Positions 3,505-14,531 of a stretch of DNA of 64,000 bases are shown piece by piece. Below the pieces are notes generated by a model, which worked only from the letters and a program-made list of their open reading frames with translations, was not told the origin of the DNA and ran no database searches. A program made the position numbers and the translations under genes. Origin of the DNA: Escherichia coli O157:H7 (lineage in GTDB: Bacteria; Pseudomonadota; Gammaproteobacteria; Enterobacterales; Enterobacteriaceae); NCBI RefSeq assembly GCF_013167455.1, contig NZ_CP038328.1. One strand, 5' to 3'. The stretch's first letter is position 1. Each line of letters opens with the position of its first letter.

Positions 3505-3520
3505 TGTGATTTGTATCACA
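3505..3520. promoter_or_regulatory. CRP binding site (perfect TGTGA-N6-TCACA)
   Basis: tgtgatttgtatcaca upstream of azuC; a second near-consensus site tgtgatggttgtcata lies at 3535..3550. Confidence 0.6.
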
Positions 3521-3602: not shown

Positions 3603-3689
3603 ATGAAACTGCGCAAAATCCTGAAAAGTATGTTCAATAACTATTGCAAGACGTTCAAAGACGTACCGCCAGGCAATATGTTCCGATAA
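3603..3689 (+). CDS. azuC: Small membrane-associated protein AzuC (28 aa)
   Basis: ATG..TAA encoding MKLRKILKSMFNNYCKTFKDVPPGNMFR, followed directly by an intrinsic terminator; too short for the 60-aa ORF track. Confidence 0.8.
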   Translation: MKLRKILKSMFNNYCKTFKDVPPGNMFR

Positions 3690-3690
3690 C

Positions 3691-3717
3691 AAAAAACCTG
3701 CTCCGGCAGGTTTTTTT
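3691..3717 (+). terminator. Rho-independent terminator after azuC
   Basis: aaaaaacctgctccggcaggttttttt: GC stem with 7-T run. Confidence 0.7.
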
Positions 3718-3803
3718 GTGTCCTGATGAGGGTGGATGTGACTATCGTTGAAGATGTGAAGCCGCTACTATAACGGCTTTCAAAATGCTATCAGGAGTTT
3801 ACG

Positions 3804-4055
3804 ATGTCCCAGACGCTGAATGCCGATCAGGAACTGGTTTCTGATGTGGTTGCTTGCCAGTTGGTTATCAAACAAATTCTGGATGTTCTCGATGTAATCG
3901 CGCCCGTTGAAGTTCGTGAAAAAATGTCCAGTCAGCTGAAGAATATCGACTTTACTCATCATCCCGCTGCCGCAGACCCGGTCACCATGCGGGCAATCCA
4001 AAAAGCCATCGCGCTGATTGAGCTCAAGTTTACCCCACAAGGCGAATCCCATTAA
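3804..4055 (+). CDS. yecJ: Uncharacterized protein YecJ (DUF2766)
   Basis: 83-aa ORF with AGGAG Shine-Dalgarno; K-12 synteny. Confidence 0.85.
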
Positions 4056-4134
4056 AAAACCGCTGCTTCAAAAAAGATGAGGCAGCGGTTTCTCAAAAAC
4101 TTCATCGGTGCAATGCATTAGCGTCGATGTATGA

Positions 4135-4638
4135 TCAATGCAGCTGATGCGACACGACATTCAGAACATGTTGGTCGGTCTGCACTGGGCACATACCCGC
4201 AAGTTTCGCACTGCGCACTTCATCAAGAATGGTTTGCAGCAACAGGCCATCATGCTGCTGTTCTTTTTCCAGATCGCGCAGGAAATTGACGGTTGAATCA
4301 TCATTCAGTTCTTTCGCTTCATCGGCTAACTGTGCCAACGTACTAGAACGTTGCTCGTATTCTTCCATCGTTTTTTGGAACAGTTCTTCCAGAGAGTTCA
4401 GTTTTTCACCGGGAACATCAATGGCTTTAACGATGGGGGTAGCGCCGACACTCTTCATAAAGTTAAACATGCGCATCATTTGGGTCACATTACTCTGTGC
4501 CTGGGCGCGAAGGAAAGTGGCGGTGCCGTTCAGACTCTGTTCAGAACACCAGTTACTCAGGTGAAGGTAGAGATTGGATGCGTAAAACTCGCGGTTCATT
4601 TGAGAGTTGAGTTTGAGAAGCATTCCAGCGGTTGCCAT
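4135..4638 (-). CDS. ftnB: Ferritin-like protein FtnB
   Basis: 167-aa ORF, ferritin-like fold, paralogous to ftnA. Confidence 0.9.
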
Positions 4639-5149
4639 ACCTAATATCCTTATATCCAGAAGTGGAGAGGTGCAAGATAAATCAAAACACCATAATTACT
4701 GTTTGCAGAATAATTCCTTTCTGCCGGTCCGAAATGTGATCGTGGAGTCAATTCTGACGATGATCTGAAATAAGAATAACGTCTGAACGGGTATAAGAAA
4801 ATGCTTAAATCATCAAGTTTATATATTTTTACATTTCATTGATGAAATCAATGTAACTGCAATGAATTTTAATGATAGTGCTTTTTGTATCTTGTTGATA
4901 TTAATCAATGAATTTGAATTCATGATGAAGTGATTATTTTATAAAACGTTTTTTCATTTTTGCGAGATGGCTCTCATTATACGTGTTCTGTTAATTAATG
5001 AGCACAGTGATAATTAATGACGAAATGAATGACGTGCATTTTCCACATCTTTGAGTTGCGGTTATTACACCATTTCAAAAACTCAACGCCAGGTAATGCG
5101 GCCTATTGACTGGTGAAAAAGAAGACATCCCGCATGGGTACCAAAGACA

Positions 5150-5434
5150 ACAAGGATTTCCAGGCTAATCTTATGGATTAATCTGCTGTGCATTCAACAA
5201 TTTGTCTGACAAATTGGCTTTTCCTTATGTCTTTTCCCGCTAAATTTATGCACGTTCTCACTGTAATTCTGCGATGTGATATTGCTCTCCTATGGAGAAT
5301 TAATTTCTCGCTAAAACTATGTCAACACAGTCACTTATCTTTTAGTTAAAAGGTAATGCTTTGTTTTCCGATTAATTTAACGAATGTCATTCGTTTTTGC
5401 CCTGCACAAAACGACACTAAAGCTGGAGAGAACC
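5150..5434 (+). promoter_or_regulatory. araFGH promoter region with candidate AraC half-site
   Basis: tatggattaatctgctg (5172..5188) matches about 13 of 17 positions of the reverse-complemented AraC I1 half-site; exact promoter elements not resolved. Confidence 0.4.
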
Positions 5435-6424
5435 ATGCACAAATTTACTAAAGCCCTGGCAGCCATTGGTCTGGCAGCCGTTATGTCACAATCCGCTATG
5501 GCGGAGAACCTGAAGCTCGGTTTCCTGGTGAAGCAACCGGAAGAGCCGTGGTTCCAGACCGAATGGAAGTTTGCCGATAAAGCCGGGAAGGATTTAGGGT
5601 TTGAGGTTATTAAGATTGCCGTGCCGGATGGCGAAAAAACATTGAACGCGATCGATAGCCTGGCCGCCAGTGGCGCAAAAGGTTTCGTTATTTGTACTCC
5701 GGACCCGAAACTCGGCTCTGCCATCGTGGCGAAAGCGCGTGGCTACGATATGAAAGTCATTGCCGTGGATGACCAGTTTGTTAACGCCAAAGGTAAGCCA
5801 ATGGATACCGTTCCTCTGGTGATGATGGCGGCGACCAAAATTGGCGAACGTCAGGGCCAGGAACTGTATAAAGAGATGCAGAAACGTGGCTGGGATGTCA
5901 AAGAAAGCGCGGTGATGGCGATTACCTCCAACGAACTGGATACGGCTCGTCGCCGTACTACGGGTTCTATGGATGCGCTGAAAGCTGCAGGATTCCCGGA
6001 AAAACAAATTTATCAGGTACCTACCAAATCTAACGACATCCCCGGGGCATTTGACGCTGCCAACTCAATGCTGGTTCAACATCCGGAAGTTAAACATTGG
6101 CTGATCGTCGGTATGAACGACAGCACCGTGCTGGGCGGCGTACGCGCGACGGAAGGTCAGGGCTTTAAAGCGGCCGATATCATCGGTATCGGTATTAACG
6201 GTGTGGATGCGGTGAGCGAACTGTCTAAGGCACAGGCAACCGGCTTCTACGGTTCCCTGTTGCCAAGCCCGGACGTACATGGTTATAAGTCCAGCGAAAT
6301 GCTTTACAACTGGGTAGCAAAAGGTGTTGAACCGACCAAATTCACCGAAGTTACCGACGTGGTGCTGATCACGCGTGACAACTTTAAAGAAGAACTGGAG
6401 AAAAAAGGTTTAGGCGGTAAGTAA
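5435..6424 (+). CDS. araF: L-arabinose ABC transporter periplasmic binding protein
   Basis: 329-aa product from MHKFTKALAAIGLAAVMSQSAMA (signal peptide); GGAGAG Shine-Dalgarno; the listed ORF has a 17-codon upstream extension. Confidence 0.95.
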   Translation: MHKFTKALAAIGLAAVMSQSAMAENLKLGFLVKQPEEPWFQTEWKFADKAGKDLGFEVIKIAVPDGEKTLNAIDSLAASGAKGFVICTPDPKLGSAIVAKARGYDMKVIAVDDQFVNAKGKPMDTVPLVMMAATKIGERQGQELYKEMQKRGWDVKESAVMAITSNELDTARRRTTGSMDALKAAGFPEKQIYQVPTKSNDIPGAFDAANSMLVQHPEVKHWLIVGMNDSTVLGGVRATEGQGFKAADIIGIGINGVDAVSELSKAQATGFYGSLLPSPDVHGYKSSEMLYNWVAKGVEPTKFTEVTDVVLITRDNFKEELEKKGLGGK

Positions 6425-8008: not shown

Positions 8009-8022
8009 GTAAGGAGAGTATG

Positions 8023-11375
<3,353 letters not shown>

Positions 11376-11381
11376 GAGCGG

Positions 11382-11810
11382 TTAATCTCCCGTAAGTGGA
11401 ACTAACAGCACATCGACCTCACTTGAGGCAATCACTCTTTTCGCCGAGCAGGATGCTCGCGAAAAGAAACTGTGATTGTGATTACCGCAAATCACCAAAT
11501 CGAAATGATATTTGCGACAAACTTCCAGAATATGTTCGCTTAACTCACCGTAGGCAATAAACGTCTTGTCAACGGGATACCCCGCATCCTGAATTAACTT
11601 ATCAAGAAAGCTTTGCGTTTCTTCCTGCATCACGCTGCGTAAATCTTCAAGCATCGGCGCAGCTAATTGATTGTACATTTCCGGGTCGGAAGCGAGAGTA
11701 ATTAAACTGATGTGTCCCTTTACTGGCCTGGCGATAGATACCGCTTTTGCCAGCAGTTGCTGACTTTCCGGTGTAACCGCAACAGCGACAAGAATATTGC
11801 TATAGCTCAT
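11382..11810 (-). CDS. uspC: Universal stress protein C
   Basis: 142-aa UspA-family ORF; divergent from flhDC. Confidence 0.9.
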   Translation of the reverse strand: MSYSNILVAVAVTPESQQLLAKAVSIARPVKGHISLITLASDPEMYNQLAAPMLEDLRSVMQEETQSFLDKLIQDAGYPVDKTFIAYGELSEHILEVCRKYHFDLVICGNHNHSFFSRASCSAKRVIASSEVDVLLVPLTGD

Positions 11811-12589
11811 AACCTGTTCCTTATTCTGTGAACTTCAGGTGACATTAAAGCTTTACTCCTAATGGAGAAACGACGCAATCCCAACTCAGTCAAACAGGTA
11901 AATATTAGTCCGATTATTAGTAAAGACAATTAATCAATCACTCTCGGTGATCATATGATTTCAACTGTAATTATAAGAAAATAATGTACTGATTCCCCGC
12001 ATTAAACAAGTGGTTAATATATGCAAAACATTTTATTAACATTAAGTTGATTGTTGCCTTTCTTTGTATTTAATTAGTTTGTTGTGCGGTAAGTGTCTGT
12101 TTAAAAATAGCTTATCTGGTATTGCATGAAAGTGATTATTTATAGCAGATGATTATTTACGGTGAGTTATTTTAACTGTGCGCAACATCCCATTTCGATT
12201 ATTCCTGTTTCATTTTTGCTTGCTAGCGTAGCGAAAAACTTTTTAACAGATTGAAATACACCCAAAACAAAAGTATGACTTATACATTTATGTTAAGTAA
12301 TTGAGTGTTTTGTGTGATCTGCATCACACATTATTGAAAATCGCAGCCCCCCTCCGTTGTATGTGCGTGTAGTGACGAGTACAGTTGCGTCGATTTAGGA
12401 AAAATCTTAGATAAGTGTAAAGACCCCCTTCTATTTGTAAGGACTTATTAAACCAAAAAGGTGGCTCTGCTTATTGCAGCTTATCGCAACTATTCTAATG
12501 CTAATTATTTTTTACCGGGGCTTCCCGGCGACATCACGGGGTGCGGTGAAACCGCATAAAAATAAAGTTGGTTATTCTGGGTGGGAATA
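11811..12589 (+). promoter_or_regulatory. flhDC master-operon regulatory region and long 5' UTR
   Basis: 780-bp AT-rich intergenic region upstream of flhD; contains the CRP site at 12313..12328; no IS element present. Confidence 0.8.
12313..12328 (+). promoter_or_regulatory. CRP site of the flhDC promoter
   Basis: tgtgatctgcatcaca, perfect TGTGA-N6-TCACA; its centre lies about 270 bp upstream of the flhD ATG, consistent with the known -71.5 site and ~198-nt leader. Confidence 0.75.
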
Positions 12590-12940
12590 ATGCATACCTC
12601 CGAGTTGCTGAAACACATTTATGACATCAACTTGTCATATTTACTACTTGCACAGCGTCTGATTGTTCAGGACAAAGCGTCCGCTATGTTTCGTCTCGGC
12701 ATAAATGAAGAAATGGCGACAACATTAGCGGCACTGACTCTTCCGCAAATGGTTAAGCTGGCAGAAACCAATCAGCTGGTTTGTCACTTCCGTTTTGACA
12801 GCCACCAGACGATTACTCTGTTGACGCAAGATTCCCGCGTTGACGATCTCCAGCAAATTCATACCGGCATCATGCTCTCAACACGCTTGCTGAATGATGT
12901 TAATCAGCCTGAAGAAGCGCTGCGCAAGAAAAGGGCCTGA
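12590..12940 (+). CDS. flhD: Flagellar master regulator FlhD
   Basis: 116-aa product from [14 protein letters not shown]; the listed ORF begins 9 nt upstream at a GTG (119-aa form). Confidence 0.93.
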
Positions 12941-12942
12941 TC

Positions 12943-13521
12943 ATGAGTGAAAAAAGCATTGTTCAGGAAGCGCGGGATATTCAGCTGGCAATGGAATTGA
13001 TCACCCTGGGCGCTCGTTTGCAGATGCTGGAAAGCGAAACACAGTTAAGTCGCGGACGCCTGATAAAACTTTATAAAGAACTGCGCGGAAGCCCACCGCC
13101 GAAAGGCATGCTGCCATTCTCAACCGACTGGTTTATGACTTGGGAACAAAACGTTCATGCTTCGATGTTCTGTAATGCATGGCAGTTTTTACTGAAAACC
13201 GGTTTGTGTAATGGCGTCGATGCGGTGATCAAAGCCTACCGTTTATACCTTGAACAGTGCCCGCAAGCAGAAGAAGGACCGCTGCTGGCATTAACCCGTG
13301 CCTGGACATTGGTGCGGTTTGTTGAAAGTGGATTACTGCAACTTTCCAGCTGCAACTGCTGCGGCGGCAATTTTATTACCCACGCTCACCAGCCTGTTGG
13401 CAGCTTTGCCTGCAGCTTATGTCAACCGCCATCCCGGGCAGTAAAAAGACGTAAACTTTCCCAGAATCCTGCCGATATTATCCCACAACTGCTGGATGAA
13501 CAGAGAGTACAGGCTGTTTAA
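12943..13521 (+). CDS. flhC: Flagellar master regulator FlhC (zinc-binding)
   Basis: 192-aa ORF with Cys cluster CNCCGG...CSLC; immediately downstream of flhD. Confidence 0.95.
13452..13478 (+). promoter_or_regulatory. Sigma-28 (FliA) promoter inside flhC 3' end (motA/MotR promoter)
   Basis: TAAA-N15-GCCGATAT matches the sigma-28 consensus TAAA-N15-GCCGATAA. Confidence 0.6.
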
Positions 13522-13579
13522 CTGATACGGTGTGGCGCAACATTCCAGCAGCGGTAACGACGTACCGCTGCTTTTTTTT
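13486..13579 (+). ncRNA. motR: MotR-like sigma-28-dependent sRNA from the motA 5' UTR
   Basis: Sigma-28 promoter followed about 95 nt later by an intrinsic terminator upstream of the motA start; ends are approximate. Confidence 0.5.
13545..13579 (+). terminator. Intrinsic terminator between flhC and motA
   Basis: ccagcagcgg-taacgacgta-ccgctgc stem-loop followed by 8 T. Confidence 0.7.
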
Positions 13580-13647
13580 GCCCCAATCGCGCGTTAACGC
13601 CTGACGACTGAACATCCTGTCATGGTCAACAGTGGAAGGATGATGTC

Positions 13648-14531
13648 GTGCTTATCTTATTAGGTTACCTGGTTGTTCTCGGTACAGTTTTCGGCGGTTA
13701 TTTGATGACCGGTGGAAGCCTTGGAGCACTCTATCAACCCGCTGAACTGGTGATTATTGCCGGTGCAGGGATTGGGTCGTTTATTGTCGGCAATAATGGA
13801 AAAGCGATTAAAGGCACGCTGAAAGCGCTGCCGTTGCTGTTTCGTCGCTCCAAATACACCAAAGCAATGTATATGGATCTGCTGGCTCTGCTTTATCGGT
13901 TGATGGCGAAATCGCGGCAGATGGGGATGTTTTCGCTGGAACGTGATATTGAAAATCCCCGTGAGAGCGAGATCTTCGCCAGCTACCCACGCATCATCGC
14001 GGATAGCGTCATGCTTGATTTTATCGTCGATTATCTGCGCCTGATTATCAGCGGTCACATGAACACCTTCGAAATCGAAGCCCTGATGGATGAAGAGATT
14101 GAGACGCACGAAAGCGAGGCAGAAGTCCCGGCGAACAGTCTGGCGCTGGTCGGGGACTCACTTCCGGCGTTTGGTATTGTCGCGGCTGTAATGGGGGTCG
14201 TTCACGCGTTAGGTTCAGCCGATCGTCCTGCCGCCGAGCTGGGGGCGCTTATCGCACATGCGATGGTGGGGACTTTCCTCGGCATTTTATTGGCTTACGG
14301 ATTTATTTCCCCATTAGCGAGTGTTTTACGTCAGAAAAGCGCCGAAACCAGCAAAATGATGCAGTGCGTCAAAGTCACACTGCTTTCTAATCTGAACGGT
14401 TACGCACCGCCTATCGCCGTTGAGTTTGGTCGCAAAACGCTCTATTCCAGCGAACGTCCGTCGTTTATTGAACTGGAAGAGCATGTGCGTGCGGTGAAAA
14501 ATCCGCAACAACAGACGACAACCGAGGAAGC

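Follow-up and report, generated by a model that had tools for sequence, protein, structure and literature searches.

The uspC-flhD intergenic region of an Escherichia coli O157:H7 chromosome as an uninterrupted flhDC regulatory region

The DNA between uspC and flhD in the stretch analyzed here (64 kb of an Escherichia coli O157:H7 chromosome, referred to below as the window) is almost certainly the native, uninterrupted flhDC regulatory region of this chromosome. Its sequence is already known and ordinary, as published O157:H7 genomes carry the identical one, and it contains no segment derived from an insertion sequence (IS). The uninterrupted state is also the norm of the species, occurring in about 97% of complete E. 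coli genomes, so that intactness should be regarded as the default and not as a finding. The features of the region are listed below, with coordinates in the window.

11382-11810, minus strand: uspC coding sequence, 142 amino acids; an open reading frame divergent from flhD, with uspC annotated at the matching position in Sakai.
11811-12589, no strand: uspC-flhD intergenic region (the gap), uninterrupted, 779 bp; from identity to Sakai and EDL933 and indel-free alignment to K-12.
11900-12300, no strand: AT-rich upstream regulatory stretch, 29% G+C; assigned from composition and by analogy with the repressor, nucleoid-protein, and IS region of K-12.
11991-11994, no strand: unoccupied site, the position of a 1228-bp IS3-family element in O55:H7 DEC5B; from sequence comparison.
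12074-12077, no strand: TTAG, which fits an IS5 target, 516 bp upstream of the flhD ATG; the site is inferred from this distance.
12285-12292, no strand: CATTTATG, one copy, which flanks IS1H on both sides in MG1655; from alignment and the MG1655 annotation.
12293-12296, no strand: TTAA, one copy, which flanks IS5 on both sides in W3110; from alignment to W3110.
12313-12328, no strand: cAMP-CRP site TGTGATCTGCATCACA, a perfect TGTGA-N6-TCACA palindrome centered at 12320.5; from a consensus scan.
12357-12385, plus strand: candidate sigma-70 promoter, TTGTAT (12357-12362), 17 bp, TACAGT (12380-12385); inferred from the position of the start site.
12392-12589, plus strand: 198-nt flhDC leader (5' UTR), with GGA motifs at 12398 and 12441; from the published leader length and alignment to K-12.
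12392-12611, minus strand: counterpart of the K-12 antisense RNA AsflhD (MG1655 1978176-1978395); transferred by colinearity.
12590-12940, plus strand: flhD, 116 amino acids, Q77L relative to K-12; from the open reading frame and the Sakai annotation.
12943-13521, plus strand: flhC, 192 amino acids, protein identical to K-12; from the open reading frame and the Sakai annotation.

The gap occupies 11811-12589, between uspC on the minus strand and the flhD ATG at 12590. The earlier note had delimited it exactly, although its length is 779 bp and not the 780 bp given there, and had rightly described it as AT-rich: its G+C content is 35.4% (29% in 11900-12300) versus 50.5% for the whole 64-kb window. 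The gene order otsBA-uspC-flhDC-motAB is as annotated in Sakai, with otsB and otsA upstream and motA and motB after flhC, and the window, like Sakai, contains the flhDC-mot-che-flhBAE cluster in full. Orthology of the region is indicated both by its place between divergent uspC and flhD inside this gene order and by colinear identity, which is 100% to O157:H7 genomes and 96.0-99.6% to 10 other alleles. The UspC protein of the window differs from that of K-12 at three amino acids.

In comparison with other O157:H7 genomes, the gap matched Sakai, EDL933, TW14359, EC4115, and Xuzhou21 at 100% identity and 100% coverage, and it is identical in every O157:H7 genome among the 30 matches listed. The flhDC region of Sakai and EDL933 (ECs_2603-ECs_2602) has the same 779 bp and the same flanking genes, with no difference inside the region. 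Colinearity with Sakai extends over the full 64 kb of the window, with four SNPs between the two. One of these falls in araH (8020-9009), where position 8283 gives codon 88 as TGT (Cys) in the window and the gene is an intact open reading frame of 329 amino acids, whereas codon 88 in Sakai is a TGA stop and the gene is annotated as the pseudogene araH_1. As araH is among only four differences from Sakai in 64 kb, the window comes from an O157:H7 strain other than Sakai. Since the window is O157:H7 and not K-12, comparison with K-12 serves as background and does not describe a property of this sequence.

Neither of the usual signatures of a transposable element was found in the gap: there is no transposase reading frame (the longest open reading frame touching the gap, flhD aside, has 40 amino acids), and a repeat search found neither direct nor inverted repeats of at least 12 bp, and hence no terminal inverted repeats, as the earlier note had observed. 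No part of the gap is copied elsewhere in the 64-kb window. A search of 11300-13700 against Rfam with an E-value threshold gave no match; because the leader and AsflhD have no curated Rfam family, this null result says nothing either way.

The earlier note had proposed a comparison with MG1655 and W3110. The MG1655 gap is 1555 bp long and holds IS1H (768 bp) with an 8-bp target duplication of CATTTATG; when IS1H and one duplicate are removed, 779 bp remain, which align to the window with no indels and 16 substitutions (97.9% identity). The W3110 gap of 1978 bp is the sum of the 779 bp of the window gap, the 1195 bp of IS5, and a 4-bp TTAA duplication, and the window gap aligns without indels to both of its flanks. 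In nine additional strains of various lineages (O145:H28, an O6:K2:H1 strain, and isolates from pigs, birds, and humans), the gap measures 778-780 bp and is 96.0-99.6% identical to that of the window, with single-base indels only. Relative to empty sites, the window therefore has no extra DNA (779 bp versus 778-780 bp in 10 other alleles, with indels of at most 1 bp), whereas the occupied alleles measure 1555 bp in MG1655, 1978 bp in W3110, and 2011 bp in DEC5B (3675-5685 of the locus in that strain). Target-site duplication is absent as well, as CATTTATG and TTAA each occur once at the sites concerned. The indel-free match to the IS-free form of MG1655 and to the W3110 flanks bears out the view that the flhDC control region is uninterrupted, with no IS-derived segment anywhere in 11811-12589.

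The description of this region as an IS hotspot agrees with published accounts of it as an IS target (PMC11237407, PMC5007776, PMC5493358), and IS insertion upstream of flhDC is known to activate motility in K-12 (PMC11237407, PMC5289928, PMC5493358). It had also been claimed that laboratory K-12 carries IS1 or IS5 here, and indeed the IS1 of MG1655 and the IS5 of W3110 lie within 4 bp of each other. Their targets abut (12285-12296), so that two independent laboratory activations occurred at the same 12-bp spot. Both sites, roughly 100 bp upstream of the start of transcription, are empty in the window. The IS-activated alleles of laboratory K-12 (IS1H in MG1655; IS5 in W3110, MC4100, DH10B, and RP437-type strains) share their flanks and targets with the window, which lacks the 768-bp IS1 and the 1195-bp IS5. 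A further IS5 insertion, in a Keio mhpR mutant, was reported 516 bp upstream of the flhD ATG (PMC11237407), the distance at which TTAG occurs in the window.

Insertions in natural or environmental strains involve the same intergenic region, and none of them is found in the window. IS30 was described in the uspC-flhD gap of chlorine-tolerant wastewater strains (uspC-IS30-flhDC) and in 0 of 845 animal and human isolates (PMC5007776). The junction of the IS3-family element of DEC5B was detected in one of 5,426 genomes. Had this insertion been fixed in O55:H7, the sister lineage, the empty site of O157:H7 would have been informative, but fixation was rejected, as the insertion occurs in DEC5B only. 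In addition, three natural isolates with an interrupted locus were inspected (CP53, HCP6S3_I1, and 2017.17.01CC), all of which have IS1 followed by a deletion of flhDC through flhE. IS1 lies within the gap or beside it (for HCP6S3_I1, inside flhD) and is followed directly by yecT/argS, with roughly 16 kb comprising flhDC, mot, che, and flhBAE gone. IS1-bounded motility loss thus recurs at this locus, and in the examined isolates the outcome is loss, not activation, of motility. A search of the literature on IS629 or other IS elements upstream of flhDC in O157:H7 found nothing relevant.

A census of complete E. coli genomes placed these cases in proportion. The gap was matched in 5,421 of 5,426 genomes, and at least 80% of it was present in one piece in 5,271 of the 5,426. 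For a 500-bp core (11993-12492), the sequence was contiguous in 5,244 of 5,414 genomes and split into two places in 153. The MG1655-type IS1 junction was covered to at least 80% in 77 genomes, and among the matches listed most were laboratory K-12 stocks; the other IS1-junction matches listed were two-piece matches in pig isolates, two of which, when inspected, had IS1 elsewhere at the locus together with a deletion. The W3110-type IS5 junction was found in 60 genomes, mostly laboratory K-12 stocks. Most genomes that depart from the uninterrupted state are derivatives of laboratory K-12 or have lost the motility cluster through an IS1-bounded deletion.

Known control elements of flhDC could be located within the gap. 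The cAMP-CRP site at 12313-12328 is one of two perfect CRP palindromes in the window, compared with 0.09 expected by chance. The other, TGTGATTTGTATCACA, lies at 3505-3520 in the yecJ-yecR intergenic region, where K-12 presumably has the catabolite-regulated small-protein/sRNA gene azuC (isrB). The flhDC leader has been determined to be 198 nt long (PMC10530849, PMC12692685), and the end of the AsflhD annotation in MG1655 agrees exactly with this length, lying 198 nt upstream of the flhD ATG. Together with the indel-free alignment to K-12, this leader length places the start site, taken from K-12 by colinearity, at 12392 and the center of the CRP site at -71.5. Centers near -61.5, -71.5, -82.5, and -92.5 are typical of class I activators, and -71.5 is one of these positions. 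Soutourina et al. reportedly placed the flhDC CRP site at -71.5 in 1999. In the window, the site matches the consensus, and its center lies upstream of the -35 element on the activating face of the helix. The claim that the CRP site has the expected spacing was thus sustained, as the K-12 offset is kept and the center falls at -71.5 from the K-12-derived start. CRP is a direct activator of flhDC in E. coli (PMC10530849).

The sequence TTGTAT-17-TACAGT is probably the sigma-70 promoter of flhDC, judging from its position relative to the start site. In a consensus scan for promoters and terminators, this candidate was too weak to score, and such weak hexamers are as expected for an activator-dependent promoter. 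The only pick of that scan was a promoter-like site on the minus strand (12198-12169), which was set aside, as the number of picks was below the shuffled expectation. The leader of K-12 is a target of CsrA and of the small RNAs ArcZ, OmrA/B, OxyS, and McaS (PMC10530849, PMC12692685), and AsflhD runs antisense across it from a promoter 22 nt inside flhD (PMC9600491). In K-12 without an insertion (MG1655 minus IS1H, or BW25113-type strains), the CRP site, promoter, leader, and AsflhD lie at identical offsets from the flhD ATG. Farther upstream, the flhDC DNA of K-12 binds H-NS, LrhA, OmpR, RcsAB, Fur, IHF, MatA, and YjjQ (PMC5493358).

Based on these correspondences, a working scheme can be proposed for the region, every step of which is carried over from K-12 by orthology or exact colinearity. 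Transcription would begin near 12392, some 198 nt ahead of the flhD ATG, at a weak sigma-70 promoter that would be activated by cAMP-CRP bound in class I fashion to the palindrome centered at -71.5. About 500 bp of AT-rich upstream DNA would bind repressors and nucleoid proteins (H-NS, LrhA, OmpR, RcsAB, Fur, IHF, and others), which would hold flhDC expression low in a condition-dependent manner. After initiation, CsrA and several small RNAs would act on the 198-nt leader, across which AsflhD would run in antisense. In laboratory K-12, IS1 or IS5 about 100 bp upstream of the start would cut the promoter off from the upstream region and thereby increase motility. Because these K-12 sites are empty in the window, native control of flhDC should operate in full here.

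The gap differs from K-12 by 16 substitutions, all of which except 11911C are common to other lineages sampled (11 aligned sequences). At 11911, the window has C instead of T, the sole gap substitution unique to it among the 11 aligned alleles. The leader contains four of the differences from K-12 (12427, 12428, 12445, and 12465), all of them also found in other strains. At 12328, the last base of the CRP site, A is present in the window and in all nine other non-K-12 strains, and G is present in K-12 alone (TCACG), which makes the perfect palindrome the species norm and K-12 the outlier. At flhDC, the weaker CRP half-site is thus that of the reference laboratory strain. Within the first 184 bp of the gap, DEC5B and the window show a single difference.

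A further difference from K-12 lies in the coding sequence of flhD. Codon 77 (12818-12820) is CTG (Leu) in the window and CAG (Gln) in K-12, and Gln77 is also found in the solved structures 1G8E, 2AVU, and 4ES4, in O55:H7 DEC5B, and in eight newly sampled strains that share the FlhD protein accession of K-12. An exact 61-mer with the Leu77 codon was found in 294 of 5,367 genomes, and every one of these that was sampled was O157:H7. FlhD Q77L is therefore, on the sequences compared, a lineage-specific, O157:H7-derived change in an almost invariant protein.

Several other readings of the region have to be weighed against that of an ordinary native control region. As the region is a documented IS target, it was worth seeking a concealed IS remnant, such as a lone terminal repeat, a truncated copy, or the scar of an excision; apart from this reputation, no supporting trace was found, and such a remnant is so improbable as to be negligible, considering that the length of the gap agrees with the IS-free K-12 form and with nine strains without any indel of more than 1 bp, that repeats and reading frames above 40 amino acids are missing and both CATTTATG and TTAA are single-copy, and that the IS3-family element of DEC5B has no match in the window. 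It is also very unlikely, if slightly less so, that an IS-free locus is an unusual and informative state, for instance one that marks a lineage as non-laboratory or poorly motile. In favor of this reading, the MG1655- and W3110-type junctions are common among laboratory K-12 genomes (77 and 60 genomes, respectively), but at least 80% of the gap is in one piece in 5,271 of 5,426 genomes and just 153 are split for the core. The two K-12 junction types make up most of these exceptions, the remaining examined ones are IS1-bounded cluster deletions or the one-off IS3-family insertion, and IS30 was absent from this position in the 845 animal and human isolates (PMC5007776).

More room is left for the possibility that the O157:H7 allele is regulated unlike that of K-12, through the CRP half-site, the four leader changes, 11911, and FlhD Q77L, which is nevertheless considered unlikely. 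In its favor are the 16 substitutions relative to K-12, the G at 12328 that weakens the CRP half-site in K-12 alone, the uniqueness of 11911C among the 11 sequences sampled, and the confinement of FlhD L77 to 294 genomes, all of those sampled being O157:H7. On the other hand, all gap differences but one are common to many E. coli lineages, which makes K-12 the outlier rather than O157:H7, and a literature search found no paper addressing such a difference. A narrower version, in which O157:H7 may have retuned its flagellar master switch after the split from O55:H7 via Q77L and possibly 11911, appears more doubtful still. No result contradicts the reading of the gap as the native, uninterrupted flhDC regulatory region, which is retained.

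With a native flhDC region, motility phenotypes of this strain cannot be put down to IS activation of the laboratory K-12 type. The census indicates that insertions at this hotspot are in essence a feature of laboratory K-12, and that the commoner IS event seen in natural isolates is IS1-bounded loss of the motility cluster. FlhD Q77L is the remaining lead from this locus. If the master switch was indeed retuned, Q77L and 11911 would alter the activity or stability of FlhD4C2, or upstream repression, with effects on motility and on the exposure of flagellin in the host.
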